Source: Dictyostelium discoideum
Lineage: Eukaryota
Length of the DNA stretch: 64,000 nt
NCBI GenBank assembly: GCA_000004695.1
Contig: CM000155.2
Span: 3,136,001-3,200,000, forward strand
Reading direction: 5' to 3'
How positions within the stretch are numbered: position 1 is the stretch's first letter; each line of letters opens with the position of its first letter. Shown piece after piece: positions 1,986-51,944 of this stretch. The notes beneath the pieces are model-generated. The model was not told the DNA's origin and did not search any database. It saw only the letters and a program-made list of their open reading frames with translations. Both the position numbers and the translations under genes were made by a program.

Positions 1986-2014
<29 letters not shown>

Positions 2015-3425: not shown

Positions 3426-3429
3426 AGAA

Positions 3430-3721: not shown

Positions 3722-3780
<59 letters not shown>

Positions 3781-3782
<2 letters not shown>

Positions 3783-8727: not shown

Positions 8728-11700
8728 TTATTTTTTTAATTTTTTATTTGATGTTGGTTTTGTTGAAGATTTTATATTTTCAGGTTGTTTTCTAACTTTT
8801 GAAGATTTATTTGAAGATGAGGTAGAGGAAGTTGATTTATTAATATTATTTTCTTGATTTAAAATATCATCTAAATTATTACTATCAATATCATCAGATG
8901 GTACGAATGAAATATTTGGATTTATACAATTAATTTTTAATTTTTGATCATGAGCTTTACTATCATCAACATAAATTTCAACAGTAACTTTATCAAATAC
9001 TCTAAAAGTATGAATACCATTACCAAGTGTTTGATCTTCATGATTATAATTATAAATATTAGATGTGCCACCACCACCATTGGTGGTAGCAGTTGAAGAA
9101 TTTGGATCAGAAACATAAACAGTACCTTCAAAACCATAACGTGGCACTAATACAACAAAAGCATTAGCTTTTACACGAATGATATAAGCATCTTCAACAG
9201 ATTTACGACCTTTGAAAAAGATTAAAGTATGAAGTTGAGTTGAACCTCTACTTGCGTATTGAGCCATTTTATGACGGAAATTATTATTCTCTGTTAATGC
9301 TGAAATGGTTTTATTCTCTAAATTTAATGAAACTGATTGAATACCAATTGCAGAAGCTAATAAACGATGAACTATAATATCTGGATAACGACGAATTGGT
9401 GATGTGAAATGAGTGTAAATATCAGTGGCCAAACCATAATGATTAAAATCTTCATATGGTAATGAACCTGATGAGAAATATTTAGCTGGTGACATGCAAC
9501 GGGTTGTCATAATACGACATAGGGTATTAAAGTATGAATCGTTCTTATCTACAGCGGAATCCAATGAATCTGCTAAATCTTTACTTGTGGTGGTTGAGAA
9601 TTTGTAACCTTTATTCTCGATTAACTTTGTCAATAAATCGAAAGCTGCTTTATTTGGAGTTGGATGACGACGTAACATAGCACAACCTGGGAAATGTTTA
9701 TAAATTTTCTTGGCAACCCAAATATTTGCTAACAACATAAACTCTTCAATCATTGAATTTGTTTCACGAAGTTGATAAATTTCAACATCGGATGGATCAC
9801 CACCCAATTCTTCAGTCTTGAATTTAACTTGTGGTGAAGCTAAATAGAGTGCACCCCTATCGAAACGTTGTTTTCTAAGAATTTTTGCTAAACTATTTAA
9901 ATTTCTAAGATTTACTGTGATTTGATCATTTTGAGATTTATCATCAATTCTAATTTGTGCTTGTTCATAGGTTAGAGATGCACATGAACGAATTATACTT
10001 TTAGTATATTCGACTGCAATGATTTCACCAGTGTGTTGATTAATTTTCCAAATACAAGAGAAAGCGAAACGATCTACATTTGACATTAATGAACAAAGAT
10101 TACCTGATAATTCACCTGGTAACATATCAATTCTTCTATCGACTAAATAAACAGAAGTACTACGATTTGCAGCTTCTTCATCGATTGCTGTACCTTCTTG
10201 AACAAAATGTGATACATCAGCAATATGAACACCAACCTCCATAATACCTTTACCAAGATCTTTAATATGTAATGCATCATCAATATCTGTACAACCTGGT
10301 GGATCAACACTGAAAATACACTCCTTTCTCAAATCTTTACGACCCACCATATCAGCACTCGTAACACGATCCATAATATCTGGTGATGGTAAACATTTCA
10401 TTACTGCTGCACCAAATGGATGATGTGGTATATCGAATTGTAACAATAATACTTGACTCTCTGTTTCCTTATCGCCCAATGGTCCTAAATCCTTTACAAA
10501 ATGACCACTTGGATATTTTGAATTCTTATCCCATTGATCGATTGCCACAACAATACGTTTACCAATTAAATTACTAACTTGACGACTTTTGATTCTAATT
10601 TTTGGTATACGTTTATCAATTGGCATAAAATAAAGAAAATGTAAACCTGTACTTGTTTTCGTAGTAGTATTATTATCATCTTGTTTGAATTCAACTGCAC
10701 CACAATATGGCTTCCAATTACGTTTAATTATACCAACGACTTTACCAGTTGGTTGCTTTTTTGAAATTAATGAATCCTTTGCAATTGAATCATCATCTTC
10801 TTCAACACCTTCATTCTCTAACATAATTAAAGTCGATGGTGTATTCCATTTAGATTGATCAAATAATTCAACGGCAACAATATCACCATCCACTGCTCTA
10901 TTTATATTCTCAATACCTTGAATCAATATCTCCTTTTCCATCTCCCTATTTGATACTGTTGCTTCTCTATAATTGGTTATACTTGTTCTAAATATACCTT
11001 GAATTAATTTACCACCTTTAATTCCCTCTGTTAACATTGACATTGGCTTATGTTCTTGATATTGGAATCTCTTTGATTCATCATTATCTTTTTCATTACT
11101 ATCATCATTTGGATCTGATAATTTATCAACCAATGATGGATTCTTATCTGATAATTCAAATACTAAATCTTGAACTAGTGTTTTTTAAAAAAAATAAAAA
11201 ATTAATATTTTATGTATATATATAAAATAATATAATATAATACTTACTAGTTTGACAATCTAAACCTAATGATTTTGCTTTTTTTAAATTATCTTTATCA
11301 TTTGTAATTAATAAAACTTTAATTGAATATTTATGAAGATGTGATTTATACCATTGAGTAGCTACACGAATTGCACGATCATTTCTATCATTTGGCGATT
11401 CACCATTTTCTCTAGTGATTGATGTGAATGTACTATATTCATTAGAGTAAACATAAAATTTTCTTGAGGATTCTTTAATTACATCACGTATACGATTAAA
11501 GATTGCACGATTTTGTGATTTAACTTCATCTAATACCGTTGATAATATTATACAATTCTTTATGGTTGGATCTTCTAATAAATCAATTTGGTGCAATATT
11601 ACATTTGTATCTAATATTAATATTTTATCAGAATCAATTGTATTGATTTCGTTTGATAATAATGCTCTATCTTCAACTGTTGTCCTTCTCTCTAATTTGA

Positions 11701-11821: not shown

Positions 11822-12082
11822 TATTTTAAAAAAAATTAAAAAAATAAAAATAAAAAAATAAAAAATAAAAAAATAAAAGAAAATGTGAAAAAAAAAAACG
11901 AAAAAAAAGTGATTTATCAACTCGTTTTTTTTATTTTTTTTTTATTTTTTTTTTTAATTTCTCATATTTTTGATATCATTAACAATTTAACATTTAAATT
12001 AAAAATTTTTTTTTTTTTTTTTTTTTGTTTAATTTTATTTACAATACAAATTTATTTACAGAAGTTTTTATTTATTTTATTT

Positions 12083-12600: not shown

Positions 12601-13355
12601 TATTTTATTTTTTATTACAATTTATTTTTATTTTACTTTATTTATTTTTTTTTTTTTTTTTTTTTTTTTATTTTTGTTTAAATAACAAATAAATAAAAAA
12701 ATTAAATATTTGAAAATAATAATAATTTAATATAAAAAATAAAAATTTATTAATTATTGGTTATACTATGTATGGTGGTACACGCAATATTATTATAATG
12801 TATTGAACAACAATAACAATAACATTAAAAACTAAATCTCAGTTTTTTGCTTGGATAAAATTATTTTTTTATATTTTTTTTTTTTTTAGCTTTTAAATTA
12901 TTATTTTTTTTTTTTTATTTCTTTATTTATTTATTAAATACATTTTTTTTTTTTTTATTTTTTTTTTTTAATAAATTCTGAATTTATGAACCACTACAAT
13001 AATAATTAACTAATAGGTCAAGGTGTGTTTTTGAATGGTGGGGGTGTTGTGTGTTTGTTAGGTGATTTGAAGGGTGGGTTATTAGAATTTAGATTTAATA
13101 AGGGTGTGAGTTTGTCGATTTTGACCACATTGTTTTTTTTTTTATTATTATTTTTATTTTTTTTGTTTTTTTTTTTTTTTTTTTTTTTTTCTTAATTTTT
13201 GTATTTATCCATTAATTTTTTAAATTTTTTTTTTTTTTTTTTCTACTTTCAAAAATTTGAGATTTAAATCATATAGCTGTTGATGTGGATAAAGTGTTTA
13301 AAATTTTGATAATTTTAACAATATTGTTTACTACCTATATATATAGTGTTTAAAT

Positions 13356-18704: not shown

Positions 18705-21001
18705 ATGGAACAAAAAGAATTTGTAATTATATTTTTTAAAAAACAAATAAAAAAAAAAAAAAATGTTAATTATATTATTTTTTTTTTTTTTTTTAATGTA
18801 AAAAACAATTTTAGGATATTAAAAATATTTTATTGAAGATTGAAAAAGATAAAAATGAAACTTCAAAAAAAATACAAGAAAAATATAAAGATTGTACAAT
18901 TGAAGATTTGGAAAAATCTTTAAGAATCCAAAATAAAAAATCAGAAGAAATTACTTTTATCTCAAAAAAGATTGAAGAATTAAATGAAAAATTAATAGTT
19001 GAAAAATATAAACCATTATTGTCATCGTCCAATAATTCAAATGAAATTGAAAATGAGATATCACCAAAAATTAAAGAAATTTTAATTAAAAACTCTATAT
19101 TAAAAAATGAAAATTCAGCAGTATCACCATCGATAACAACAACAGATGCATCAGCATCATTAAGTTTTGGGGGTAAAACAATTGTTTTACCATCAAATCA
19201 ACCAACAACATTAAGAAAGAGTGATGCACCAGCTGATACAAAACATATTAAATTGGAAATTACCAATGATAATAAAATTAATATTATTTGGCAGGATGCA
19301 AAAAATTATCAATCAAAAGATTGGGTTGCACTTTATAACTATAAATATGCACCACCAGATGGTTATGTAAATAATACATGGTATTGGGCTGGTAATAAAA
19401 CAAGTGGTAAAGTTGAAACAGGTGTTACTTATGATGCTAATAGAACTCAACAAGTTAGATATTATAATTATCAAAATGAACTTATTAGTCAATATACAGT
19501 TGAAAGTCAATGTTGGATAGATATTCACGGTGATCTTGGAAGTGGTCTACAAGTAAATTGGCCAAATTATTCGACATCTGGTAGTAATGATATAATTGCA
19601 ATTCATAATAGTAATTTTGGTGAACCAAAAGATCTTGCCAATTCAATTGAACAATGCTATGCTAATAAAAATGATGGTGATTGGGTTTCTGAAATTATTA
19701 ATTGTGGTTTACCATATTATGCAGTTTATTGGTCTAACATTGGTGGTGGCAATTATATAAAACAAGCATGTTCAAAACCTATGACACCAGTTGATAGAAA
19801 ACTTGCAATTGGTGAATATTATAATGGAGAAGATTCTTATAACACATCAGTTGCTGCATTTTATGATTCAAGAGCAAACGATGACAAAGATTATATTATG
19901 GTTACCCTCAAAGAAGTCGATCAACCAGGAACTCCCGGATATAATGCAAAAGCAGCCAACGGTATAGTTTTATCATCTAATCATTCGTCATACAATGATA
20001 CACTTTATTTTTGGGGAACCTATTGTAGCTTTGATAATGAAACTGGTAAATTTTATATTCGTCAAAAAAGCTGTGCACTTGAATATAGAAAATGGATCAC
20101 TGATAATTACTCAAAGTTAAAGGATAGAAAAGTAAGAAATTTAGTTTTACCAGGTTCACACGATTCAGCAACTTACTTTATCAATTCACTCTCACCAAAA
20201 TCACCAGATGCTGACCATTATAAATATCCAGATTATCTTTTAACTCCATGGTCAAAAACTCAAACTTGCTCAGTTTATAAACAATTATGTTTTGGTGTAA
20301 GATATTTTGATTTAAGAGTTGCAAGATTAAAAGATAAACTTTATATTATTCATAATTTTTACTCTGATTCAGTTAAACAAGTTTTAAAAGATATTCTTCA
20401 ATACGTTTCAGAAAATGTAAATGAAGTTATCATTCTTCATTGGAGTCATCTTTATCTTGTCGATGAAGATAATAAATTATTAATGAAGATGATAATTGAA
20501 ATATTAGGAAAATTCATGTCAAATAGTAATAAAGGACCAGATGTTAAAGTTGGAGATTTAGCTGGTACACCAATTATTTGTATATATGATGATTTAGTAA
20601 ATCCATTAAGTAATGGTGGTGCTGGTGGTAATGGAAAAAGACCAGATATTCGTGATCCAAGACTTTGGGATCCTTCATGTATATCCTCACCTTATGAAAC
20701 TTCAAGATATCATAGTTTCGAATCAATTTTAAAATTTTTAAAATCTAGAATTAATGTACCAAAAAGAAAAGTTCTCCATGTTTGTCAAGCAATTCTTACA
20801 ATTGAATTTTCTTATGAATTCTTTGGACATGACTTAATAACTTGGACTGTAGAACATCGTAATAAATTCAATGAATTCTTTAATGATCTTGAAACCTTTG
20901 CTTCACCAACAAATATTATAATGACTGATTTCGTTACATTTTATCCATTATCTTCATATTGTATTCGTAGAAATACTTTAGAATTTAATAATAGTAATTA
21001 A
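18705..21001 (+). CDS. PI-PLC X-domain-containing protein (PLCXD-like phosphodiesterase) with a long N-terminal extension, about 734 aa. Exons: 18705..18722 and 18815..21001.
   Basis: The C-terminal half has LVLPGSHDS and surrounding residues that are typical of the PI-PLC X / bacterial PI-PLC-like fold. The 18-nt first exon (MEQKEF) is inferred from a GTAATT donor and a TTTTAG acceptor in frame. Confidence 0.7.
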
Positions 21002-36262: not shown

Positions 36263-36635
36263 ATTCAAACTTTTAATTTATCATAAACTTATCTGTTTTT
36301 TTTTTTTTTTTTTTTTTTTTTTCAAATTAATAACCTCATCTCAATTTGGAATGTTCTAGTTTTATTTAATTTTATTTTAGTAATATTTTTATAGAGCCAG
36401 TTGTTTTTTTTGTCAGCAAATAAAAAGTAAATCAGCTATTTTTTTTTGATAAAAATATCTGAGCCTTAAAATAGTTTGGGTTAAACTTGGACAATTCAAT
36501 AAATTGAAATATTTCCATAAAAATCCATACTCTGGTATTGTAGTTTTAGGACCATCAATATAACAATTATATTTAGTTTAGTAAGAGGTATAATATTATT
36601 TATTATTTACCATTAATTATTTCTGTGTTCAAGGG

Positions 36636-36935
36636 TCACAAAAGTATATACAAATTATCAAAAGTATTACTTTTGATTAAAACATCTTTTTTGTCCAAAC
36701 TTTTTTCTAAATTTTTTTTTATTTTATCGTCTGGTTCGTGATTGATGTTGATGACATATTTGAATTGTTTTTTTTTTATTTGATTTTTATCCACAATTTC
36801 GCTTATTTTTTGTAGGCATTTGTGTTGCTTAATATTTGTGGTGTTGTTTGTAATTTTCATCTTGTTTTCTTTCTATTATTTTATTTTACTTTAAAAAGTT
36901 AAAAATCTGGAAATTTTCTGATAAACTTGAGTTCC

Positions 36936-36970
<35 letters not shown>

Positions 36971-37587
36971 TTTTTTTTTTTTTTTATTTATAGAAAGTAC
37001 TGAGTGAATTATTTTATTTTTTGAGATGTTTAGGAAGTGCTATTGCGTGAAGAGGTGAGTTCCATTGTCTGCTAAATTGTAATAGCTTTAGCGAGATTAA
37101 TGAGTCTAATTTATTTTATTCTTCTGGCCGTTGCTTTGATTTGATTCTTAATTTTTTGTTGTCTATGAATTATTATTTTTTTTTCATCGTGAATCAGTTT
37201 GTTTCTTTTGTACCAAATTTTTTCGAATATGATAGCTATTAAATTGGCTATTAGTGCAATTTGTAGATGGTTTAAAATCTTCACATTCCAGGTGTGAGTG
37301 GTGTGTCCACACTTAGTTAGGGTGTAGTTGAAGATTTCTTGTGTGTTTTTGATGTGGGCTTTGCAGTTGAAGAATATGTGTTCTGAAGTCTCATCTTCCC
37401 CAAACTGTTGGCATGGCATGTTGTATATTTTTGGTAGTGCTTTCAGTGTGTATCTCCATAATAAATCTCTACCTTTCATGTTTATTATTTTTTTAATTTC
37501 TTTAAATGGAAGGTGTTTGCTATTAATGTTGGTCATTATTTCTTTTTGGCCATGAATTTTTTTTTTTTTTTTTGAATTTTTGGCCAT
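36636..37587 (-). mobile_element. 5'-truncated TRE5-A fragment carrying the ORF2 C-terminal 158 codons, the ORF2 3' UTR, an A-run and the B-module (first 74 codons of ORF1). The C-module is missing.
   Basis: The ORF at 37111-37587 (GRDLLWRYTLKALP...CQQFGEDETSEHIFFNCKAH) is homologous to the ORF2 C-terminus of the full-length element. Positions 36985-37100 match 3640-3720 of copy 1. The truncated 5' end lies 39 bp from tRNA-His. Confidence 0.6.
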
Positions 37588-37625
37588 GAATTGGAATACG
37601 ACGTTTTTACTAAAATATCAAAATT

Positions 37626-38496: not shown

Positions 38497-38920
38497 TAAC
38501 TTTTTTTTTGAATTGGATAACGCAATTATTAGTTGCTTCTCCTTGAGATGCTAGATCTCATTTTATTTGTAGTAGTTTTTTTACAGGGTCTCTAAAAGAG
38601 GGGTTAGTTTACTTTTTTTTTTTTTTTTTTTTTTTTGTTTCAAATTTTGAATTGTATTATTACTTTTGATTAAAACATCTTTTTTGTCCAAACTTTTTTC
38701 TAAATTTTTTTTTATTTTATCGTCTGGTTCGTGATTGATGTTGATGACATATTTGAATTGTTTTTTTTATTTGAGTTTTATCCACAATTTCGCTTATTTT
38801 TTGTAGGCGTTTGTGTTGCTTAAAATTTGTGGTGTTATTTATAATTTTCATCTTATTTTCTTCTATTTTACTTTAAAAAGTTAAAAATCTGGAAATTTTC
38901 TGATTAACTTGAGTTCCTAT

Positions 38921-38952
<32 letters not shown>

Positions 38953-39030
38953 TCTTTTTATATGAAAAATGAAATAATCAAAAAAAGAGATTGTAGTTGT
39001 TTGTTTTTTTAAAAAAAAAAAAAAAAATCG
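38497..39030 (-). mobile_element. ORF-less TRE5-A derivative, about 530 bp, of the A-B-C module type: C-module with an oligo(A), B-module with the first ~70 codons of ORF1, and an A-module
   Basis: C-module reverse complement at 38497-38610, ORF1 N-terminus reverse complement at 38640-38860, B-module tail at 38870-38925, A-module reverse complement at 38951-39010. Confidence 0.65.
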
Positions 39031-39249
39031 TACCATACCATCCAAAAATCTCAACTTTTGTAATAATGGCGAATAATTAAGCGACATAAATAAATTAATA
39101 TATAAAGTTTTTATCCCTGGTAAAATACAAATATAGAAATAGATCTGTAACTGAAAAGACGTTAACAAATACAAGATTCTTACTTTATTCTCAGAAATTT
39201 TACCAACAGTTTCTTTATTAAAATTAGTTTTAGTATAAATAGTAAATAA

Positions 39250-39450
39250 AATAAAAATTAATTCATTGTTGTTTTATTCCAAATTGTGCACAAACATAAC
39301 TTATAAGTAAAGCTTTTTTATATATAATATTATATATATCTCTATATTATATATAATAATATATATTATATATATTATATATAATAAAGTTTTACTTATA
39401 AGTTTTGTTTGTACACAATTTGGAATAAAACAACAATGAATTAATTTTTA
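39250..39450. repeat. Large near-perfect palindrome with arms of about 58 bp (AATTCATTGTTGTTTTATTCCAAATTGTGCACAAACATAACTTATAAGTAAAGC) around a spacer of about 85 bp of (TA)-rich sequence
   Basis: The two arms are exact reverse complements of each other. Confidence 0.75.
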
Positions 39451-39469
39451 TTTATTATTAATTATTTAT

Positions 39470-39566
39470 TATTAATTATTTCTGTGTGTTCAAGGGTTAC
39501 ACAAGTATATAAGGTATATACAAATTATCAAAAGTATATCATAGGAATTGGAATACGACGTTCATT
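39470..39566. repeat. Unclassified dispersed repeat (TTAATTATTTCTGTGTTCAAGGGTYACA...CAAATTATCAAAAGTA...GGAATTGGAATACGACGTT). A second copy is at 36590-36640, and the terminal 18-mer also occurs at 37590-37607 next to tRNA-His.
   Basis: Three partial copies in this window, and each one abuts a TRE5 fragment. Confidence 0.4.
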
Positions 39567-39820
39567 ACAAGCTTGTTAGCTTTATAAATATATATAATTA
39601 ATAATTATATAATTGAATAATATTTTGTTATCTTTATTTAATATTAATTTATATTTATAATATTCAATATTGTTTATAAAATTTTCTCTAGTATTTATAT
39701 TATTTATAAGGAGTTGACAGTATTATTATTATAATTATTTTTATATTATTTAAATGTGTGTCAACTATTATTAGTAATGTAATATGCATATTTAATATCT
39801 ATTAATTTTATTTTATTTTA

Positions 39821-39933
39821 TTTTTTTTGAATTGGATAATGCAATTATTATTTACTTCTCCTTGAGATGCTAGATCTCATTTTATTTTATTTATCTATTA
39901 ATTTTATATTTTTTTTTTTTGAACAGGGAATAA
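39821..39933 (-). mobile_element. Solo TRE5-A C-module (a 5'-truncated insertion) with an oligo(A)
   Basis: A T-run followed by GAATTGGATAATGCAATTATTATTTACTTCTCCTTGAGATGCTAGATCTCATTTTA is the reverse complement of a C-module. Confidence 0.5.
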
Positions 39934-39947
39934 CAACTATTAATTTT

Positions 39948-40057
39948 TTTTTTTTTTTAATTGGATAACGCAATTATTATTTGCTTCTCCTTGAGATGCT
40001 AGATCTCATTTTATTTTATTTTATTTTTTTTTTACAGTGTCTCTAAAAGAGGGTTGG

Positions 40058-40106
<49 letters not shown>

Positions 40107-40398
40107 TTTCCAATTTTGAATTGTATTATTACTTTTGATTAAAACATCTTTTTTGTCCAAACTTTTTTCTAAATCTTTTTTTATTTTATCGTCTGGTTCG
40201 TGATTGATGTTTATGACGTATTTGAATTGTTTTTTTTTTAATTGAGTTTTATCCACAATTTCGCTTATTTTTTGTAGGCATTTGTGTTGCTTAATATTTG
40301 TGGGGTTGTTTGTGATTTTCATTTTATTTTCTTTCTATTTTTTTTATTTTTCTTTAAAAAGTTAAAAATCTGGAAATTTTCTGATTAACTTGAGTTCC

Positions 40399-40437
<39 letters not shown>

Positions 40438-40705
40438 TCTTTTTTATATGAAAAATGAAATAATCAAAAAAAGAGATTGTTGTTGTTGTTTGTTTTTTTT
40501 CGATCTGATTATTTTTTGCTTTTTTTTTGAAAATTTTGCTACGCAATATTCTCAAAACGAAACAAATAATAAATTACAATAAAGTAAAAAGATGGCTTTT
40601 TAAAATAGTTTATTTATTTATTTATTTGTTTTTTAAGTCTTTTTTATATGAAAAATGAAATAATCAAAAAAAGAGATTGTTGTTGTTTGTTTTTTTTCGA
40701 TCTGT
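39948..40705 (-). mobile_element. Short TRE5-A derivative of about 760 bp (A-module x1.3, B-module with 87 codons of ORF1, C-module, A-run). It is flanked by the 14-bp direct repeats CAACTATTAATTTT at 39934-39947 and 40707-40720.
   Basis: A-module reverse complement at 40432-40505 and 40630-40705, ORF1 reverse complement at 40059-40322, C-module reverse complement at 39960-40050, T-run at 39948-39960, and the flanking TSD. Confidence 0.7.
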
Positions 40706-40773
40706 CAACTATTAATTTTTTTTTTTTTTTAATAACATCACTCAATTTGAGTGTGTTCTAGGAGAGTTTATTT

Positions 40774-40807
<34 letters not shown>

Positions 40808-40930
40808 CTTTTTTTCTTGTTATTCTTATTTTTTTTTTTATTATTATTATTATTATATTATTATTATTATTATATTATTATTATTATATTATTATTATTA
40901 TTATATTATTATTATTATTATTATTGTTAT

Positions 40931-40970
<40 letters not shown>

Positions 40971-40975
<5 letters not shown>

Positions 40976-43900
40976 AGTAGTTGGTGTTATATGAGCAGTA
41001 TGGTATGAAGTGTTCCGGGATGTTTATGGTCATGAGTTTCGAGTTCCAGTTGTGGCTGAATTTTTCGAGTCTTCTTTTTATTGATGCGGTCCGATTGATT
41101 GACTCTCGGTTATCAGTGCATCTTAGTTCTTGACGTAGTTGTTTTTCTACTATCTTTCTTGTTCTATCCCATTCGGCATCTCTCGCTTTTTTGATTTTAT
41201 GAATTATTTGGTTCTCTGTTATTATTGTAGTGTTATCGTTGAATTTTATTTGATTTCTTCTGTACCATATCGATTCCATAATGGCTCCTATCAGATTTGA
41301 TGAGAATGGTGTGAGTAGTTTTCCGAGAACTTTTTCGCTCCATGGACCGTGGTAAGTGTTGTTGGAGTCTTTACAGACCTTTTGATAGATTGAGTCGATA
41401 TTCTGTTTTATTGATTTGCATTCGAAGAAGATGTGCATAGACGATTCTTCTTCTTTACATGAGTGGCAATTCTCCCCATGGTGTTTTGGAAGTGCCTTGA
41501 GTAGATATCTCCATGCTAAGTCTCTTCCTTTGATAGTTGTGATTGATCTGGCTTCTCTGAATGGTAGAATTGGGTGATTAATGTTCTTTTGAATCAGTTT
41601 TTGACCTGTTGTTGGCTGGTGTTTGTTCCATCCCTTGTATTTGATATCCATCATGTTTCTATAGATTACTTTTAATTTTTGTTTGTTTTCGTATTTGGGT
41701 TTGACTTGGTTTAGTTTGAGAGTTATTCGCTCTCTTGGGTGGTGCAACAACTTCCAGGCTTTCCAGCATTTGATGTGAATCCTTGATAGTGAGTTTTCTT
41801 TTTCCGACTTCCAGACTTCCATATGTGGAGGGCAGTTCTGGTCGTCTTTTTCTCTGAGGTATTGTTCGTATATCCATGCTTTCTGGGCATTGGATCTGGT
41901 TGCCATATTCCAGAGTTCCAGGCCTCCAATTTCATAGTCTCTTCTGCTCCTTTCTTTTGAGATAGCCCACCTGTCCCCTTTGAATAACATGTTGGCATTA
42001 ACGTTCTCCAGTTTCTTTATGTCATTTATTTCGTTGATGTATAGTTGGAATGTTAGTTGGGACAGCAGGTATGATTTGAGGATTGTGATTCTACCTTTTA
42101 GCGTTGATGACACGCTCGAATAGCATTTTGTGAGGTTTTCCAGTTTGTTCACCGTATCATCTACTTTGCTTATTACACCTTTGCGGTTGAAGAAAAAGCC
42201 AAGATATCTTTCTTCTTCTTTCGCCCCAATTGTCTTATATTTGGTCTTTATCTTTGGGTTTTTAGTGATGCACACACATTTATTATCGTTTATTTTTGCT
42301 GCTGTGGCTTGGCAAAATTTTATAACTTTCATATCCATTTTATCTGCGTCATCTATGTTACTGGCTAGTGTGACTGTGTCGTCTGCATATTGTCCAATCT
42401 TCATCGAATTGTTCTGATTGAGTTTTATGCCTATTATGGTATTGTCTTTTCTTATTGATGTTGATAAGCATTCACATACTATAGCGAAGAGAGTTGGTGA
42501 AATTGGGTCGCCCTGTTTTGTACCTCTTCCTGCTCTGAAGGATTCAGAGAGTTGTCCATTTACCATGACCCTTATGTTGGTGTTCGTTAACATGCTTAGT
42601 ATTGTGTTTGTTATTTTCCGAGGGAACTTTAGATGGTTTAGAGTCCTTATTAACGCTTTATGAGATATTGAATCGAAGGCTTTTTCGAAGTCATAAAAGG
42701 TGATTATCGTGTTTCTATCACTCTTTTCCATTGCTAAATCCAAAGCTATAATGTTGTTGTGGAGTAGCCTTCCTGGTATAAAACCGTTCTGGTACTTTGA
42801 GATTATGTTTGGCAGGATTTTTAGTATTCTATTGTTGATTATTTTTGAGTAGATTTTGTAGTCTACGTTGAGTAACGTTATTGGTCTTCTGTTTGAGATT
42901 TCCAAGACATCCCCTTTACCTTTGTATATTGATGTAAGGATACCGTTCTTGAATTCTGTTGGAATTTCATTGTTTAAAAAGAAGTTGAATAGTTCTGTGA
43001 GGATTGGAATTAGTTTGTGTTGGTGGATTTTATAGAATGAAGATGTTATTCCATCTTCTCCTGGTGATTTACCTTCTGCTATCTTTTCTATTGCTAGCTT
43101 AACCTCATATTCTTCGATTCTGTCTTCCATCTCTGTTAATTTTTTTTTATCTATTGGTGGGTTCCAGGTGCTTAGAAGTTCTGTATGTGTTTCTTGGTCG
43201 CATTCTTTCTCTTTGAAGAGTGTCTCGTAATATTTTCTGAAGCAATCTGTTATTTCTTTTTGTTCTGTTTCGATTTTTCCATTGGATGGGTTCTTTATTC
43301 TGTGAATCTGGGAGCTCGAGTCTCTTTTTTTAAGAATAGATGTAAGGAGATTTGATGCTATTTCTTTATTGTTGATGTAGTTGATTGAGCTTTTGATCAT
43401 TCTGTCTATTCTTTCTTCTTCTTGAAGTATTGTTATTTCGTTCGATATTGTTTCTTTTTCATATTTGTTTTTTGTTTTTGTGTGTTCATTTGCTAGATTT
43501 GATAGCGTTTTTTTTCTCTCTAGTATTCTTTTCTTTTCTGTTGTAATGCATTGTTTTTTTATTTTTTTTTTGAACTTAATCCAGTATTCCGTTATGTTAA
43601 TGTTTTTTCTTTTGGTTTCCTGGTAGTGGTCGATTATTTTTTCTATCTTTTTTATTGTTTTATCTTCTTTAATTATTATTGAGTTCATTTTCCATAGGGG
43701 TGATTTGTATATTTTTGTGAAATTTGGTATTTTGAAATCCATCACTACTATGTTATGGTCTGATTTGTTTATTTTATCGATTATCTTGTACGAGTGATTG
43801 AGTTGGTGCATCTTTGTTGATAAGAATGTTCTATCGATTAGTTTATCTTTGAAGGTTGTTTTAGTTGTTGAATTTGGTAGTATTTCGGTGAGTCCTACTT

Positions 43901-44402
43901 CCATCATTAGGAATTCTATTGTTTCATTTTCTGTGAATTTTCTCTTATCGGATGATCCATCTTTGAACTTGATTTTTGCATATTTGTTGATGTTAAAGTC
44001 ACCAGTAACTATGTCTGCCTGTTCTAGATCTTCAAGGGAAATATTGTTTGAAAACCATCCTTTTCTTCTGTCATATGAGGCTGGTGCATAGATGCAAATT
44101 ATGTTGATTTCCATATTGTTTAGAATTGCAGTAAATTTTAAGATTCTGCCTTCTTTTTCTTCCAAGTTTTTAATTTCTATTTGTTCTAGGTGATTTATTG
44201 CCATTACTCCTTTTCCTCTTGCTTCTTTTCCTTTTCCTCCTGTTGAGTAATGGTTTTTGATTTGCGCTAGATTTTGATCCTTTTTTAGATTTGTTTCTGT
44301 TAGTATTGATATATCAGGTTTTATTAGGTTAATTGTATTTTTTGTCTGATTCATGCTTTTGATTGTTGAGCAACCTTGGCAATTCCAGGTCATTATTTTT
44401 AT

Positions 44403-44405
<3 letters not shown>
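40971..44405 (-). CDS. TRE5-family ORF2 polyprotein (AP endonuclease, reverse transcriptase and C-terminal Cys-rich domain), 1144 aa, apparently intact
   Basis: An uninterrupted ORF with the motifs listed above. Confidence 0.85.
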
Positions 44406-44449
<44 letters not shown>

Positions 44450-44476
44450 GTTTTTTTTTTTTTTTTTTTTTTTTTT

Positions 44477-44507
<31 letters not shown>

Positions 44508-44513
<6 letters not shown>

Positions 44514-45872
44514 AAATGAGACAGATGGAAGTATGTCTTGGAGTACTTTGGGCAATTTGTCTCTTAGTGCTGCTTCCATTAGATCTGATTCTTCCTTTGT
44601 TATTTTAGTTGGAGTTTTGTAAGGTGTTGATATTTCTTGGTGATTAGTTGTTGGGTTTGGAGATGAGTTGGATCTTTTTCTTTTTACTGTCTCTGGGGTT
44701 GCTGGAGATTCTGGATTTTGGATAGGTGACATTGTTTGTCTTTTTTTGATTGAGGCTAACCTTGGGGTTTCCTTCTTTTTTTGGTTATTTATTTTTTCTT
44801 CAAAAATTCTGTTCTCTTCTTCATTTTCGAACATCTTTCTTACCACTTCTAATGCTTCTTCATCTTCAGTTAACTCCATTTTCCTTTTCTCTTTGCTGTC
44901 AACACTATATGTTACTGTTATTGGTGGGACACGAAGTACTTTTCTCTTTTCAATATTGTTTATTGTGTTTGTCGTTTCTGTCGTTGTGGTTGTTGTAGTT
45001 GCTCTAATTGTTGTGGGTTTTTTATTTTCAATTTCGTTTTCCTTTTCTTTTTCGTTTTTGCTCTTGTCTTTGATGTTGTCATTATTGATTTCTTTATTAT
45101 TTTCTTTTCTGTTTTCTATTTTGTTTTTGTTGTTATTTTTTGATTCGCTAGTGTTTTTATGATTGGATTCTTCTTTTGATTTTATGTTTATTCTTGTGTT
45201 TTCCTTTATCTCGGGATTTGGTAGTTCCGTGATTTTTGAATTTTCTGAGATTTCGTCTTCGATTTCCTTATTTGTTTTTCTTTGATTTTTTGTTTCTTCT
45301 GTTGTAGTGAGGAATAGTATTGTTATGTGTTTACAATGTATTAGCTGGTCTTTGTGCTCTGGACTGATAATTGAGTTGAATGAGTGTATTATCAGGTTTT
45401 CACCTAAATTATCTAATTTGATTATTTCCAGTCCTTCTTCATGCAATGTTTTTTCTACTATGTCCATTGATTTTTCCCAGTTGAATGTTTTGAAGATCTT
45501 TTTTGGTTTTATTATTGCTCTGTGAACTCCTTTTAGTACTCCGTTGAAAACGTTAGAGTACTTGATTACTTGAGTTCTGCAGTCAGTGAGGATTTTGAAT
45601 TTATTCTTACTTATTATTATCTTATCATCTCCTTGTAAATGAATTTCCAATTCTGCTTTTAAGTTGTTGGAAATCTCATCTGGGATATTGATCATGAATT
45701 TATATTGTTTTAGTTCAATTTGAGTGTGGTATATTGCTTCGCTTATTTTATCAAGTGTTCTGTACGTATTTTTTAAATATTTGAACTTTGTTCTGAGTTC
45801 ATTTGATTTCTTGATTTTATCTGCCAATGTTTCTGTTGATTCTGTCATTATTGTATTTGCCAATTTATTCAT
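44508..45872 (-). CDS. TRE5-family ORF1 protein, 454 aa
   Basis: It is collinear with TRE5-A ORF1 (FKILTD..., LEIIKLDNLGENLIIHSF) and roughly 40% similar by eye. Confidence 0.8.
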
Positions 45873-45951
45873 TTCTTTTTTTTTTCTTTAAAATCTTTAT
45901 TCGACTTTAAAAATTTAAAATTCTGGAAATTCCCTGAAAGAATGTTTTCGG

Positions 45952-46026
<75 letters not shown>

Positions 46027-46147
46027 TCTTTTTTTTATATGAAAAATGAAATAATCAAATAAAAAAAGTGTTGTTGTTGATGTTTTTTCTCTTACTCTCA
46101 ACTATTAATTTTATAAAGTAACTTTATTACAACTTTTCATCAAAAAT

Positions 46148-46220
46148 GCCTGGATGGCTCAGTAGGCAGAGCGAGCGGCTGTTAACCGCTAGGTCCATGG
46201 TTCGATCCCATGTCTAGGCG
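46148..46220 (+). tRNA. tRNA-Asn (anticodon GUU)
   Basis: GCCTGGATGGCTCAGTAGGCAGAGCGAGCGGCTGTTAACCGCTAGGTCCATGGTTCGATCCCATGTCTAGGCG. Cloverleaf is intact, the anticodon loop is CTGTTAA, and the discriminator is G. Confidence 0.9.
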
Positions 46221-46250
46221 AGCTTTTAGGAAAATTTTCAATAGATCGCT

Positions 46251-46260: not shown

Positions 46261-46282
46261 TTTCCTTGATCTCTCAAATATC

Positions 46283-49200
46283 TAAGGACTTGATAATCAA
46301 TTAGATATCATTGCACCTCCATCAATCACAAGACCACTCTCTTTCTTAGAAAAAAACAATAACACCATCAACATTAAGTGTTACTTTAAATCAACCACAC
46401 ATCCGTGAAGAATTAACCTCAAAAGATGACACAAGAATTCAACAAATTCACAAAAACATTCACAAACTCTTCGAAGATATACTGTCGCCATCAGCATTTA
46501 AAATAATTGGTGCAACTGCCTTCGTAAATTGCAACGTTGATAAATTAACTTCAATAATCAACCTTCAAAACCAACTTGCACTAAATATCGACAAACTCAA
46601 CTATAGATTCGATATATCATCAAATGATTATGCAATCATTAAAACATTCATTAAAACGTACTCACCCAAACATGCAAACGATGCAATTACAAACAACCTC
46701 ACTAAATTCACCAGTTGTACATCAATTGAATCATTTACTGTCACATACTCATATGCTGTTGCGTTTAAAAGTTACATTATAACATATCATCTAATTGATC
46801 ACACACACAACATTGTTGATCAAAAGATCGAACAACCATCTGGTATCACAAGATATATCAAAGCTGCAACACGTAGTGTCACTAAACACAAAATTCAACA
46901 TGCAAAAAATGCAGATATGGCAACAACTATAAAAAATGCCATCACAAACCCAAACATGAACAAAAACAATCAACCACCAAAAAACAACATTAACAACCCA
47001 CCAACCAACGAAATTGCAAATTCCAATCGCAATAATAACTCACTTCAAAATAGTGGTTCAAAAGCTATACTAAATGAATCACTTGATATTAACAATCAAT
47101 CCCAAAACAATAATGAAATTTCACACAAAAGTGATTCTTCAAATAATAATAACGGGAAAAACTCATTATCAATGAGCAATCCAACCGATCCAACAATTGT
47201 ACCACAAAAACCTCCACCATCTCAACCAAACAAACCAAGTGCACCAACTCCAAATACAATAAATACAAGAAGAAGCAGCAATGCCCTGACTACACAACCA
47301 GTCAATACTGGTGCTGCCAAACCTAGTAAGGTATGAGCTCAAAAATCAACTTTATAACATGGAATTGTAGAGGATTCACTGATAACCCAAACAATCAACA
47401 CAATTCCTACCAAAAAGCTGTTGACACACTACAACTACTTATATCAAAACTTCCACCTCGTCCAACGATCTCAATACTCACTGAACTCAATTTATCACCA
47501 TTACAACTTAGACATGATTTTCCCGATCACATCATCTCTGTCACCAAACGAGGAAATGGTGTAATCATCATTAACCATAACCCAAACACACTCAAACTCA
47601 AACACATATCAACAATTGATGGTAGAGCTATTTTAGCAGACGTTATATTTCCAAATCAATTACCAATTGGTATTCTTGGAATTTACGCACCAGCATCAAA
47701 TAATACCATCAAAAAGAATTCATATGCAACTTCACTACAAACACTTCTCCACAACCACTCAACAAACCCAATACCAAACCAATCCCAACATGTATCTATT
47801 ATCGCAGGAGATTTCAACTGTACCCACAACGACAATTCACTATTAGATGATATTATCCAATCCTACACATACCAACACCATCTAATTGATCAAGGTGAAT
47901 TTAAAAACACTCCAACTCATACACATGGTAACAGATTAGATAGAATATATACTCAATACAATAGAATAGACCCTGAAAATATATATACACAAGTCCACCA
48001 AATTCCATCTTCATTATCAGATCATAATCCAATATCAACAACAATTTCTTCACCTTTTCAAATAAATAAACATAAGAAAAGATGGATATTATCACCTGGT
48101 ACTGCAAATGACCATGAAGCAATCAATATTATCAATCATTTAATAACTAATCACAATAAAACATCAATCAATCAATTTACAAACTGGTCAAAAGTAAAAT
48201 CAAAAATTATTAAAACTCTAAAAAACTATCAATATAACAAAGACAAACAAACTCAACGTGCAAAACAAATACTATTAGAAAAAGCAGCAAAATTCAAACA
48301 TCTTGAAGAACAATGCATCGCTGAATACAATATTATATGTAACAAAAACAAATTACACCAAAACCACACAAACATATTAAAAAAACATATAAATGGAGAA
48401 ATACCTAGCAAGTATCTATCAGCAATACTAAACAAAAGATCAAAAGATGCAAAAATTGAATCAATCCAATATGGTAACATCATTACATCCGACCCCGACC
48501 AAATTGAAAATGCGTTTGTTGAATTCTACACAAATCTATATAGCTTACAAATATGTTGTCCAATTACTCACCAGCTCATACTAAACACATGGCCCATCAT
48601 AAAAAATGAATACTGGAATGGTTTAGACTCACCATTTATACAAGATGAAGTTGAAGCTGCAATTAAAACCTGTAACCCCAACAAATCACCCGGTCCAGAT
48701 GGCGTTACAAATGCATTCTACATTAATCATTTAAACCAAGTTAAACCAATTCTCACTACATTATTCAACGATATACTAGAAAATCCTCACCACATCACAA
48801 CAGAATTCACCGAAGGTCTTATACACACAATATACAAGAAAGGCAACCCCTTACTCATATCAAATCGTCGTCCCATCACACTTCTAAACACTGATTACAA
48901 GATCCTCTCAAAAGTAATCAATGCACGTCTTCTGAGAATACTTCCTTTCATCATCAACAACAACCAAACTGGTTTCGTACCCCACAGATTCATCATAGAC
49001 AACATCATCAACATCAATGAATTAATCAACTACCTCAAATCTAAAAACCTCCCTGGTATCATCACACTATTTGACTTCTTTAAAGCATTTGATTATATCT
49101 CTCACGATAGTATTAAAAGAACATTAATTCATATTGGTATACCAATAAAATTAATAAATTTAATCCACAAGCTATTATCTGACTCACAAGCAAAAATTTC

Positions 49201-51277
49201 AATTAATGGTAAAACGACCAGAAAATTCGATATTAAAAGAGGTGTAAAACAAGGTGACCCAATCTCAGCCACTTTATTTGTAATTGTAATTGAAAATTAG
49301 CAAGAACAATAAATGCAGACAATACAATAATTGGATTACCAATTTCACCCAATCCACAAATTAAAATCAAATTCACCCAATTTGCAGACGACTCTACAAC
49401 ATACAACATCAACTACGAACAACAACAACAATCAATCAAACATTTCGATAATTTCTGCGCTTCAACATCATCATCATTAAATTTTGACAAAAGTGCAATA
49501 ATAGAAATCAACCCCCACAAAATCACTGATAAACACATAATAAACAACATTCCACAATCAAAAAGAATTCCAATAACCAAAAAAGATCAATCAGAAAGAG
49601 TCCTTGGCTATTTCTTTAATCATAATGGTTTACATAGGAAATTACCAGAAACAATGAAAACACTGATCAAATCATTAGTACTATGGAAAACTAGTGGCAC
49701 AACATTAAAAACAAAAACAACCATCATAAACACCTACTCACTATCACCAATAACATATTTATCATACCTTGAAGAATTTACAAAAGATGAAGAAATTCAA
49801 ATTAATAAATTAATCTCATGGTTTATGAATTCTCCCGCAAATTCTGAATCACCAACTCTCAATACCAATTCCATTGAAAACAACTCATCAACCATCCATT
49901 CACGTGCAAAAATACCTTTGATGTGTTATGATAGATCATTAAAACCATTAAAAGAAGGTGGTTGGGGTATGTGGAATATACAACTACGACAAGTTGCTCA
50001 AAAGATTTGGATATACAACAGATTTTTACAAATGCATAAATCTGCAAATAATTCAATATACATGATAAGTTGGATGGATCAAATCATCAACAAATCAATC
50101 TCTTCTCCATACCTTATAAAAATCAAAAAAGAATGGGAAAACTATGCAACTCAAATTGGACATCTAAAAGATAAAGTTCAAATCCTACAACCAATATTAA
50201 TAAAAAATCAAACCTCTCAAACAAACACAAATAATATTCCACTACCACCAACACTCAAAGAAATCTACTCGACAATACTCAACAATCACCAATGTAAATC
50301 AAAAGACTATATTGGCAAGAAATATTCAGATCTACTTCTTACTTCGCACCAACAATCAATACAACTATTATGGAAATACACACACGACCAACTATTTGTC
50401 AAAATTCAAAAATTAAAAGATCCAAAAGGCCGTGATACAATGCAAAGATTCCATGCTAGATGTCTTCCGATTAATCATCTACACAACAAAGTTTGCCCCA
50501 TTTGCAACAATGAAATGAATAATGATCCCTATGGTCATTTGTTTTTCAATTGTCAGCACACAATCAACTTCATAAACCACGACAAATTAAAATATTTTAT
50601 ATATAAAAATTGCAATGGAAACAAAAACTGGTCACTAACAAAAAACCAAACAACAAAATTATACACACTCATTTATAAACCACAAACAAACAACAAAGCA
50701 TTTAAACCAGATCCAACTATCAATATTAATTTTGCAGAAAACGCACAATATAAAAAATACAGGTTCAACTGGAATTATATAAACACAAATCTTGATCTAG
50801 TCAGAACACACGCATATTGGAACATAATCTCATTAGTTATTCACCAAATATGGATATGGTTATGCAAATCATTATTTGACATCAATATAACTCAATCAAT
50901 TGATAATTGGAACAACCAAATAAACAACACAACACTAGATTATGATATATTAAAATCAAAATGGCACAAGCTAATAAGATTGGAATATTCAAGAACATTA
51001 TCAAACTTTAACCAATACTCAATTAAAAACAACCTCACAAAAACTCAAAAAGAAACCCAATGGTCCGAAACAATCAAAAAATTTAAAAAAGAATGGAGCA
51101 TAAACACTAACGAACCAATTCCAACAATTACACCACCAATTAATTATTAATTACCTAATCTAAAATAACATACCATTTTAAATTCACAAAAACTAAAAAA
51201 CCTAAAATAAATAAATAAAAATAAAATACTAATTGTATACTACAATAGTTTATTTATATCAAAAAAAAAAAAAAAAA
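46283..51277 (+). mobile_element. TRE3-family non-LTR retrotransposon of about 5.0 kb, inserted 62 bp downstream of tRNA-Asn and flanked by a 12-bp TSD (CTCTCAAATATC at 46271-46282 and 51278-51289). It carries a poly(A) tail at 51261-51277 and its ORFs are disrupted.
   Basis: Its sense strand is A/C-rich. ORF1 C-terminal part is at 46917-47336. ORF2 has an APE domain (ITWNCRGF) and an RT domain (FVPHRFIIDN...FADDST) that is split by a stop at 49298-49300. There is a C-terminal Cys-rich domain (CPICNNEMNNDPYGHLFFNCQH). Confidence 0.75.
47333..51150 (+). pseudogene. TRE3 ORF2, interrupted. The 47333..49300 part carries the APE domain and the N-terminal part of the RT domain, and the 49654..51150 part carries the RT C-terminal part and the zinc-finger-like domain. 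The region between them reads through only after a frame change.
   Basis: The RT motif FADDST continues in another frame just after the stop at 49300. Confidence 0.6.
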
Positions 51278-51944
51278 CTCTCAAATATCCACAAAAAAAA
51301 CTTTTTAATTATTTTATAAACAATTTTCATGATTAAGGGAAAAATATTTAATAAAATTCATAAAACCTATTAATTGGTTATTGTTTATTTCTTATAATGG
51401 ATAAATTGACTAATCATTATTATAAAAATAATAATAATAAAAATAAAAATAAAAATAATAATAATAATATCTACACTATATTTTTAAATTAAAATTCCTT
51501 ATTTGAAAATTCAAACTAAAAAAAAAGGATAACTTCTTTACATTTTACAACCAAAGTCCATTAATAAACTGTTAATTATAGTTTTTTCCTTTAAAGGATA
51601 AACATTGATCAATATTTTAAAAAAATAAAAATAAAATAAAAAAAAAAAAAAGTGTATCGATTCTTTATTTCTATTTTATAAGTAAGAATTTCATAATCTA
51701 TTATTTATATAATTTTTTAAAAGTTGGTTTTGATTTTTTTTTCTACAAAATAATAATAAAAAAAAATTATTAATTGAAATATACAAACCAGAATTTTGAT
51801 TTCAAAAATTAATTTTTAACAACCAAAAAATAAAAAAAAACAAAAAAAAATAAAATAACATACTTTTTTTTTTATTTTAGATTTTTTCACCATCACTCTA
51901 GGAAATTAAAAATCAATTGGAGTGAACTTTTTTTTTATTTGTTT

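Follow-up and report, generated by a model that had tools for sequence, protein, structure and literature searches.

Upstream of a tRNA-Asn gene of chromosome 6 in the window, by which we mean the whole 64,000-nucleotide stretch of Dictyostelium discoideum DNA analysed here, lies a stack of TRE5-family elements separated by copies of a short repeat. The features of the locus, in window coordinates, are as follows.

38500-39010, minus strand: older short TRE5-A (A-B-C), oriented as the stack, 91-92% identical to other copies
39574-39809, no strand assigned: left part of a candidate DGLT-A solo LTR ("H3R"), continuing at 46113-46131; left boundary chosen by eye
39810-39891, minus strand: E0, a 5'-truncated TRE5-A with an A-rich tail and about 63-70 nt of the C-module 3' end
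39909-39936, minus strand: E0.5, a 28-bp remnant made up of T12 and GAACAGGGAATAACAA, with its own 14-bp duplication CTATTAATTTTATA
39934-39947, plus strand: left duplication of E1, CAACTATTAATTTT, which opens with CAA, the three bases at the 5' end of the older E0.5
39948-40705, minus strand: E1, a non-autonomous TRE5-A derivative with no ORFs, delimited by BLAST, junction comparison and C-module alignment
40705-40719, plus strand: middle repeat copy, which serves E1 as its right duplication (14 nt, starting at 40706) and E2 as its left one (15 nt)
40720-46097, minus strand: youngest layer, E2, a full-length non-LTR retrotransposon of the TRE5-B type with a 15-bp duplication
46098-46112, plus strand: tRNA-proximal duplication copy, TCAACTATTAATTTT, the currently "live" target site
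46113-46146, no strand assigned: 34-nt spacer between the tRNA-proximal repeat copy and tRNA-Asn, defined from the sequence, with no element start within it
46147-46221, plus strand: tRNA-Asn (GTT), called by ARAGORN, the Pol III gene that would direct the insertions
46282-51276, plus strand: TRE3-type element 60 bp downstream of tRNA-Asn, with Pfam Exo_endo_phos and RVT_1 domains

The mature 5' end of tRNA-Asn may be 46148. The TRE3-type element downstream is flanked by CTCTCAAATATC at 46270-46281 and 51277-51288. At the other end of the locus, the TRE5-A at 38500-39010 may be an earlier, displaced layer, and its membership in the stack is uncertain.

The largest element, E2, has its poly(A) tail as T11 on the plus strand, a 3' end of ...GAGTGATGTTATT and no C-module. 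Its ends were set by comparison with loci L002 and L004. ORF2 (40971-44405, 1144 aa) contains RVT_1 (E=5e-37), and an N-terminal Exo_endo_phos match covers the whole profile with E=0.0018 and 18.5 bits, below the Pfam cut-off of 24.5. ORF1 (44508-45872, 454 aa) is DDB_G0293632 of D. discoideum AX4, with UniProt Q9GQ50 ("Group-specific antigen") as its 90% cluster mate. BLASTP of this ORF1 against TRE5-A ORF1 gave no significant alignment; the two ORF1 proteins of TRE5-B and TRE5-A are reported to share 25% identity (PMC3159450). The 3' end ...CTCAAATTGAGTGATGTTATT-poly(A) is common to L002, L004, L014, L015 and L016, and it has neither C- nor B-module similarity. TRE5-B is set apart from TRE5-A and TRE5-C by a 3' end that lacks both the C-module and the 3' B-module (PMC3159450). 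On these sequence features E2 would belong to TRE5-B, a name that is given by exclusion. The preliminary description had placed this full-length element at 40721-46097, which is essentially right except that it starts at 40720.

The short A-B-C TRE5-A element at 39948-40705, described in the same place before, is E1. On the plus strand it consists of a T11 tail, the C-module, one B-module and about 1.5 A-module repeats, and an alignment of the C-module with three other copies in the window puts the tail directly after ...CCAATT(C). In BLAST comparisons, 40112-40704 of E1 is 97.5% identical over 595 nt to the A/B region (1714-2300) of TRE5-A.2 at 1515-4104, and its B-module is 99.1% identical to that of the same element. 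Its 5' end carries the canonical ...CAGATCG plus one extra T, and the end ...cgatctg is the same as the 5' end of TRE5-A.2 at 1515.

What had been taken for one solo C-module at 39821-39933 resolves into two features, E0 and E0.5, each with its own duplication. E0 is flanked by TATCTATTAATTTT at 39796-39809 and 39892-39905. The duplication of E0.5, CTATTAATTTTATA, is found at 39895-39908 and, once E1 and E2 are removed, at 39937-39947 joined to 46113-46115. Within E0.5, a stretch of 16 nt is similar to the final nucleotides of C-module variants, and we read E0.5 as a putative, extremely 5'-truncated TRE5 insertion whose donor element we infer. We also considered E0.5 together with the 14-mer as one longer, diverged C-module fragment, and rejected this since it leaves the 14-bp CTATTAATTTTATA repeat unexplained.

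The 14-mer CAACTATTAATTTT occurs exactly on the plus strand at 39934-39947, 40706-40719 and 46099-46112. The first and last of these starts agree with the earlier placement of the repeat, and the middle one, earlier put at 40707, is 40706. A fourth copy at 18988-19001 (minus strand) lies within unrelated AT-rich, coding-like sequence and looks like a chance match. The four matches in the window compare with 0.7 expected, and none of 100 shuffles reached four. The 11-nt core CTATTAATTTT has five copies at the locus and eight matches in the whole window, where 0.86 are expected. Both copies that flank E2, at 40705-40719 and 46098-46112, share 15 nt, TCAACTATTAATTTT, and the left one includes the extra T at 40705 that was left by the 5' junction of E1. 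No third element begins at 46099, as had been proposed; the sequence from 46113 onward is the spacer.

The repeated 14-15-mer is not purely host DNA, since 3-4 nt of it derive from earlier element junctions. Although this could suggest that the repeat is the terminal sequence of TRE5 elements, and the 11-nt core with 19 further nucleotides also adjoins the 5' end of a TRE5-B at a tRNA-Gly gene in L001, we give this reading almost no credence. The 14-mer is not at the TRE5-B ends in L002, L004 and L014, and all 21 kb of L001, L002 and L004 lack it. Nor is it at the TRE5-A ends at 1515, 4104, 5245, 38501 and 39010, or at those read in L008-L011. In addition, the third repeat copy runs on into the spacer before tRNA-Asn. 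As for L001, the segment in common is found between the element and the tRNA, beginning at a distance of 18 nt from the latter, which agrees with a DGLT-A LTR already in place and not with TRE5-B sequence. The earlier view that the repeat is target and not element sequence is thus upheld: six other TRE5-B loci were fetched, both junctions were read in three of them, and none of these three ends in the 14-mer.

Stepwise removal of each element together with one repeat copy gives perfect duplications of 15, 14, 14 and 14 bp, which end in TTTT beside the tail, so that the true length could be 10-14 nt and the first nick is uncertain by up to 4 nt. What remains at the end is the simple site ...AATATCTATTAATTTTATAAAGTAAC...tRNA. 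When the canonical termini of TRE5-A and TRE5-B are taken from other copies, the duplications start directly beyond them. On the plus strand each layer opens with a run of T, so all tails point away from the tRNA gene. All elements of the stack have their 5' end on the tRNA side, as TRE5 requires. The reconstructed 5' junctions, as they stood when each element inserted, were 45-49 bp from the ARAGORN tRNA start (48 for E1 and 48-49 for E0), within the range of 47+/-3 bp reported for TRE5 (PMC5391098) and in keeping with the position of about 48 bp upstream suggested before. As a TRE-TRE tandem, the locus has four layers in one orientation with intact duplications between them, none of them interrupted and the newest nearest to the tRNA. 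We are confident that the stack represents four independent insertions of TRE5-family elements by target-primed reverse transcription at one position upstream of tRNA-Asn. Serial retrotransposition into a site regenerated by its own duplication, as the preliminary description had it, is supported, and the series is deeper than was thought, with four layers.

The order of the insertions is fixed by nested nucleotides: CAACTATTAATTTT contains the CAA of the E0.5 5' end, and TCAACTATTAATTTT adds the extra T of the E1 5' junction. Moreover, identity to other genomic copies rises toward the tRNA, from about 96.6% for E0, measured against other C-modules, through 97-98.6% for E1 to 99.9-100% for E2. 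Both the captured nucleotides and this gradient agree with the earlier proposal that each new element lands between the previous one and the tRNA gene. The layout of repeat, E1, repeat, E2, repeat by itself gives no order, and E2 could in principle have come first, with E1 inserted later into the distal duplication copy of E2. This is very improbable. The distal copy is 5.4 kb from the tRNA, whereas TRE5 elements integrate at a set distance, about 47 bp, upstream of Pol III genes (PMC5391098). The T at 40705, which is repeated at 46098, has a one-step explanation only if E1 was first, and the higher identity of E2 also speaks against it.

The same full five-copy stack is found in an independent D. 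discoideum assembly, GCA_054883475.1 (L003), where the three copies farthest from the tRNA are again spaced by 42 and 96 nt. For other isolates, the proteins of E2 ORF1 and of the ponticulin gene next to the stack were looked up by exact match, which led to this one other D. discoideum assembly, where no intermediate occupancy state was seen; the look-up of E2 ORF2 gave no match. Assemblies do differ in places. E2 has one A-module-like 5' repeat in the window and six A-modules in L003, and at tRNA-Lys a single TRE5-A.2 in the window stands against two in L013. These differences would favor a tandem that arose from recombination, duplication or mis-assembly rather than from separate retrotranspositions, but we judge this highly unlikely. 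E1 and E2 come from two families that differ in their 3' ends and have unrelated ORF1s, and each element comes with a tail and a duplication of its own. An independent long contig reproduces the five-copy structure, and the nested CAA and T pattern is impossible by unequal exchange.

The tRNA-Asn orthologue is present in L003, L006 and L007. In L006, from the sister species D. cf. discoideum, tRNA-His and tRNA-Asn are 1.2 kb apart and there is no TRE5 upstream of tRNA-Asn. Homology there reaches only about 12-16 nt upstream of tRNA-Asn, so L006 cannot confirm the pre-insertion site base by base. In L007 the tRNA-Asn gene is inverted, with a TRE5-like insert of its own.

The candidate LTR, assembled from 39574-39809 and 46113-46131, is 255 bp long, reads TGTTAGC...TTATTACA and has TG...CA ends. 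Its 30-nt tRNA-proximal end recurs at the unrelated tRNA-Gly locus L001, and the distance from the end of this segment to the tRNA is 16 nt at tRNA-Asn and 18 nt at tRNA-Gly. DGLT-A inserts 13-18 (up to 33) bp upstream of the tRNA coding sequence (PMC6101501), and its LTR is 265 bp (PMC6101501, PMC5006619). The candidate resembles the known DGLT-A solo LTRs in its distance to the tRNA and, with the left boundary set by eye, would be like them in length and ends (PMC5006619, PMC6101501); it differs from them in being split by the TRE5 stack and in having no clear 5-bp duplication. Its flanks are AAGCT and ACTTT, with no clean duplication of about 5 bp. This absence could reflect decay or a wrong LTR boundary. 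A sensitive BLAST search for other copies of the candidate in the window and in 16 fetched loci returned AT-rich background, with the 30-32 nt of L001 as the one exception; a deletion in the TRE5-B of L001, at L001:12254, has removed the far side of that locus. The 11-nt core CTATTAATTTT probably belongs to this older candidate DGLT-A solo LTR. We lean, somewhat beyond an even chance, toward the tRNA-proximal 30 nt of the candidate LTR, 16 nt upstream of tRNA-Asn, as the original target.

Alternatively, the 30 nt held in common with L001 could have been moved, in one direction or the other, by 5' transduction, in a TRE5-B read-through transcript begun in the tRNA flank, with no DGLT-A solo LTR at both loci. 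At both loci the shared segment directly adjoins the TRE5-B 5' end, and the candidate LTR has no further copy among the 16 fetched loci. Yet TRE5-B would then have had to insert 18 nt from tRNA-Gly, beyond its usual range of positions, and the transduced length would have happened to restore the junction about 48 nt from the tRNA. The core also pre-dates TRE5-B at tRNA-Asn, since it was already duplicated by the oldest layer, E0, and the 5' junction sequences of the tRNA-Asn locus and L001 are unlike. The positions at 16 and 18 nt, the TG...CA ends and the length of about 255 bp fit DGLT-A instead (PMC6101501, PMC5006619). We therefore regard 5' transduction as unlikely, and as a novelty such transduction of tRNA-flank sequence by TRE5-B, suggested by the L001 30-mer, is less likely than the shared nick positions discussed below.

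On the preferred reading of four successive insertions, the mechanism may be pictured as follows. From the literature on TFIIIB/ORF1 targeting, TRE5 pre-integration complexes would recognise the Pol III factors bound at the tRNA gene and make their cut some 47 bp upstream. By the sequence, the first nick is on the plus strand of the window after ...AATTTT (46112|46113) in three events and 3 nt nearer the tRNA (46115|46116) in one, although the T run leaves its exact place within TTTT ambiguous. A preference of the endonuclease for T runs (TTTT|A) was also tried as the cause of reuse and was rejected, as the duplications at L008, L009, L010, L011 and the tRNA-Lys gene in the window start otherwise. 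The poly(A) tail primes at the first nick, and the second nick is made 14-15 nt farther from the tRNA, so that a 14-15-bp duplication forms. The copy between the 5' end of the new element and the unchanged tRNA gene is again at the preferred distance, so the next element lands there and displaces the older ones outward. The sequence of events is E0 (truncated TRE5-A C-module), E0.5 (the 28-bp remnant), E1 (TRE5-A A-B-C) and E2 (full-length TRE5-B). The repeat grew from CTATTAATTTT to CAA plus core and then to T plus CAA plus core, since later duplications copied the 5' junction nucleotides of the previous element.

Taken together, TRE5-A (two or three times) and TRE5-B, whose ORF1s are unrelated, may have cut the same phosphodiester bonds to within 0-3 nt over evolutionary time, despite a distal sequence that changed with each insertion. 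We tentatively suggest that where the nicks fall depends almost wholly on the boundary of the Pol III factor complex of the host at the tRNA gene, and not on element-specific proteins or the distal DNA; we hold this as a possibility short of an even chance. If true, stacks like that at tRNA-Asn could serve as natural single-nucleotide rulers of the Pol III complex footprint.

The behaviour of these elements is already known, and the tRNA-Asn stack is a clean natural example that leaves current understanding unchanged. [quoted passage not shown] TRE-TRE tandems at D. discoideum tRNA genes are known from the Winckler laboratory (PMC5391098, PMC9012585, PMC3159450), and experiments on TRE5-A have demonstrated both the formation of tandems and the reuse of an identical position. 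The present stack is like these tandems in distance, orientation, duplication length and non-templated 5' nucleotides. In both, the newcomer lies between the tRNA and an uninterrupted resident, and independent events at the identical position are possible. There is no difference in kind, but the tRNA-Asn stack has four natural layers that mix TRE5-A and TRE5-B, and the nucleotides that one duplication after another has captured show their order directly.

Other systems are less close. The clusters of Ty1, Ty3 and solo LTRs at yeast tRNA genes also arise by Pol III-directed reuse of the region upstream of a tRNA gene, where relics accumulate. However, Ty1 and Ty3 are LTR elements that use an integrase and make 5-bp duplications, and the Ty1 window is broad, whereas the TRE5 stack is built of non-LTR elements by target-primed reverse transcription, with 14-15-bp duplications and reuse at near single-nucleotide precision. 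R1 and R2 in rDNA are likewise non-LTR retrotransposons that insert repeatedly at a defined position, but they recognise DNA sequence and occupy different rDNA units, while TRE5 measures distance from a protein complex and piles up at one locus.

The stack illustrates how tRNA-targeted retrotransposons in a gene-dense genome can hit a safe site repeatedly and move older copies outward undisrupted, and the duplicated target at this locus records the order of events. It could be of use in textbooks and for testing transposon annotation, in which nested duplications give relative dating. The tRNA-Gly gene in L009 has a second natural triple duplication, and stacking on the same duplication was seen at 2-3 of about 10 occupied loci, a small sample.

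Four TRE5-family insertions, E0, E0.5, E1 and E2, are stacked upstream of tRNA-Asn(GTT). All elements of the region lie on the minus strand with their 5' ends pointing toward the tRNA, and the poly(A) tail of each therefore appears on the plus strand as an opening run of T.

Features of the insertion stack
39810-39891, minus strand: E0, 5'-truncated TRE5-A with an A-rich tail and ~63-70 nt of the C-module
39909-39936, minus strand: E0.5, 28-bp remnant, T12 + GAACAGGGAATAACAA, the latter resembling C-module termini
39948-40705, minus strand: E1, short TRE5-A with tail, C-module, one B-module and ~1.5 A-module repeats
40720-46097, minus strand: E2, full-length TRE5-B-type element with ORF1 (454 aa) and ORF2 (1144 aa)
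46147-46221, plus strand: tRNA-Asn(GTT)

What had been described as a solo C-module is two separate things, the truncated E0 and the 28-bp remnant, whose nature we infer with less certainty. Over 595 nt, E1 matches the TRE5-A.2 at 1515-4104 with 97.5% identity, and it shares the terminus of that copy (...cgatctg), with one extra T after it. In E2, ORF2 has an RVT_1 match (E=5e-37) and an Exo_endo_phos match that spans the full length but is sub-threshold, and ORF1 is not significantly similar to that of TRE5-A. An ORF within the stack matches DDB_G0293632 of Dictyostelium discoideum AX4 at 100% identity. The 3' end of E2, ...GAGTGATGTTATT-poly(A) without a C-module, is common to copies at tRNA-Arg, tRNA-Phe and tRNA-Asp and to two more (L015, L016). 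Since the C-module is the end of TRE5-A and TRE5-C, and not of TRE5-B (PMC3159450), we name E2 TRE5-B by exclusion. Its 5' end has one A-module-like repeat in the window (46006-46097) and six in tandem, of ~198 bp, in L003 (8814-9918), the same locus in an independent D. discoideum assembly; the count is 2 to ~9 in other TRE5-B copies (L002, L004, L015). Either the repeats are collapsed in the window assembly or the promoter modules truly vary in copy number.

The order of insertion can be read from the repeats between the elements. In the window, where G+C is 23%, the 14-mer CAACTATTAATTTT has 4 matches against 0.7 expected, a number reached by no shuffle. Exact plus-strand copies are at 39934, 40706 and 46099; the outer two positions are as in the preliminary description, while the middle copy had been placed at 40707. 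The fourth match (18988, minus strand) is within unrelated coding-like sequence. The locus also holds five copies of an 11-nt core, CTATTAATTTT, at 39799, 39895, 39937, 40709 and 46102. When each element and one repeat copy are deleted stepwise, every step leaves a perfect duplication, of 15 bp for E2 and 14 bp each for E1, E0.5 and E0, and the fully un-inserted site is a single ...GCATATTTAATATCTATTAATTTTATAAAGTAACTTTATTACAACTTTTCATCAAAAA-tRNA. The E0 duplication is TATCTATTAATTTT, and that of E0.5, visible after removal of the younger elements, is CTATTAATTTTATA. The 14-mer is therefore composed of CAA, which is the 5'-terminal 3 nt of the 28-bp remnant, and the older core, and the 15-mer around E2 is the 14-mer plus the extra T left at the 5' junction of E1. 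Because CAA and T from earlier 5' junctions were captured in later duplications, the order is E0, E0.5, E1, E2. Identity to other genomic copies (E2 99.9-100%, E1 97-98.6%, E0 ~96.6%) agrees with this order. The earlier observation is thus confirmed with small corrections, and its interpretation, serial insertion into one TSD-regenerated site, is supported by the perfect stepwise duplications, the captured nucleotides and the identity gradient.

When inserted, the four 5' junctions were at distances of 49, 48, 45 and 48 nt from the tRNA start given by ARAGORN (each +1 if the mature tRNA starts at 46148). On the plus strand, three of the tails start after 46112 and one after 46115, positions that are ambiguous within the TTTT run. 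Contrary to the earlier suggestion, no third element starts at 46099; 46113-46146 is only spacer to the tRNA. These distances, the orientation and the duplication lengths all match the published TRE5 values, i.e., an insertion window of 47+/-3 bp, strict 5'-end-to-tRNA orientation and duplications of 10-16 bp (PMC5391098, PMC9012585). From the literature, targeting would proceed via ORF1 and TFIIIB, and integration by target-primed reverse transcription with the ORF2 endonuclease and reverse transcriptase.

If the 14-mer were element sequence, it would be found at TRE5 ends elsewhere. It is absent from 21 kb in total of three unrelated TRE5-B loci (L001, L002, L004), from the TRE5-B junctions read at L002, L004 and L014, which end in other sequences, and from TRE5-A ends, both those in the window (1515, 4104, 5245, 38501, 39010) and those read in L008-L011. 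Each of these other elements has its own, different duplication. This absence at the loci read makes an element-borne 14-mer very unlikely. An assembly artefact is likewise very unlikely, since the five-copy structure recurs in L003 (GCA_054883475.1). There, all five core copies are present with identical 42- and 96-nt spacings among the three tRNA-distal ones; the interval that spans E1 shows a 13-nt difference, probably within E1 homopolymer runs. The sister species D. cf. discoideum (L006) has tRNA-His and tRNA-Asn at a distance of 1.2 kb; a TRE5-A-like element precedes tRNA-His, and the region upstream of tRNA-Asn has none. Since homology to the window ends ~12-16 nt upstream of the tRNA, this empty site is not confirmed base by base. 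A pseudo-fragment like the tRNA-Asn 5' flank and gene start is found ~100 bp upstream of the real gene (L006 8745-8790). L007, from a second assembly of D. cf. discoideum, has tRNA-Asn in inverted orientation, with a TRE5-A-like insert of its own.

A second natural case is found at a tRNA-Gly-GCC locus (L009), where the duplication CCACTCAATTT(TGG) occurs three times upstream (9611-9621, 11996-12006, 12974-12984), bracketing a TRE5-A.2 and a 5'-truncated element with a variant C-module (...GCGTTATTCCATTC). At the minus-strand tRNA-Lys, the window has one TRE5-A.2 (1502-4117, duplication ATATATCTAATTT), and the same locus in the other assembly (L013 9413-12004, near a contig end) has two in tandem with one shared duplication of this sequence. 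The extra copy reflects either a true insertion or duplication event or a discrepancy between the assemblies.

The original target may itself be a repeat. Next to the stack, on its tRNA side, lie 30 nt (46102-46131), TGTAATAAAGTTACTTTATAAAATTAATAG reading away from the tRNA, that recur with 29/30 matches at an unrelated tRNA-Gly-GCC locus on another chromosome (L001 9188-9217). Both copies directly adjoin a TRE5-B 5' end, and the gap between the shared segment and the tRNA is 16 nt for tRNA-Asn and 18 nt for tRNA-Gly. In 18/20 cases, DGLT-A (H3R is the older name of its solo LTRs) sits 13-18 bp upstream of a tRNA gene, and its LTR is 265 bp long (PMC6101501, PMC5006619). When joined, 39574-39809 and 46113-46131 form a 255-bp unit with TG...CA ends. 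This unit has no clean 5-bp flanking duplication and no further copy among the 16 loci. Alternatively, the shared 30 nt could come from 5' transduction by TRE5-B; this would require TRE5-B to have inserted non-canonically, 18 nt from the tRNA, and conflicts with a core that was already duplicated by the oldest layer. Given the segment position, the DGLT-A spacing and LTR length, and the 255-bp unit, we are therefore mildly inclined to place the stack inside an old DGLT-A solo LTR, a candidate compared with the published description only. Just left of this candidate, 39453-39573, which includes the 18-mer GAATTGGAATACGACGTT, is paralogous to the flank upstream of tRNA-His (36594-36667 + 37589-37610), taken as if without its own TRE5 insert (36668-37588). 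Such paralogy points to an old duplication or to a further tRNA-associated repeat.

Stacking at tRNA-Asn is a kind of feature already known and a correct reading of known behaviour; in published work, of 98 tRNA genes that were occupied beforehand, 91 received tagged TRE5-A. The locus adds a clean four-layer natural example, mixed between TRE5-A and TRE5-B, with an order that is readable from the duplications.

Other elements are found nearby. A short TRE5-A (A-B-C; 38500-39010), in the same orientation as the stack and 91-92% identical to other copies, has no tRNA gene within 50 bp of its 5' end and may be an earlier layer displaced by later insertions. Between it and the stack is a 235-bp near-perfect palindrome (39235-39469; arms 89% complementary), which may be a hairpin-type small transposon. 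Downstream of tRNA-Asn, at a distance of 60 bp and just beyond an external B-box-like motif (tagttcaattc), is a TRE3-type element (46282-51276, plus strand; Exo_endo_phos and RVT_1) with a 12-bp duplication CTCTCAAATATC (whole feature 46270-51288). Upstream of the plus-strand tRNA-Lys at 5444, two C-module-like sequences lie tail to tail (5162-5352): the first shares 92.5% (67 nt) to 83.5% (115 nt) identity with the E0 and E1 C-modules, and the second, inverted and 84-86% identical, is possibly TRE5-C-like.
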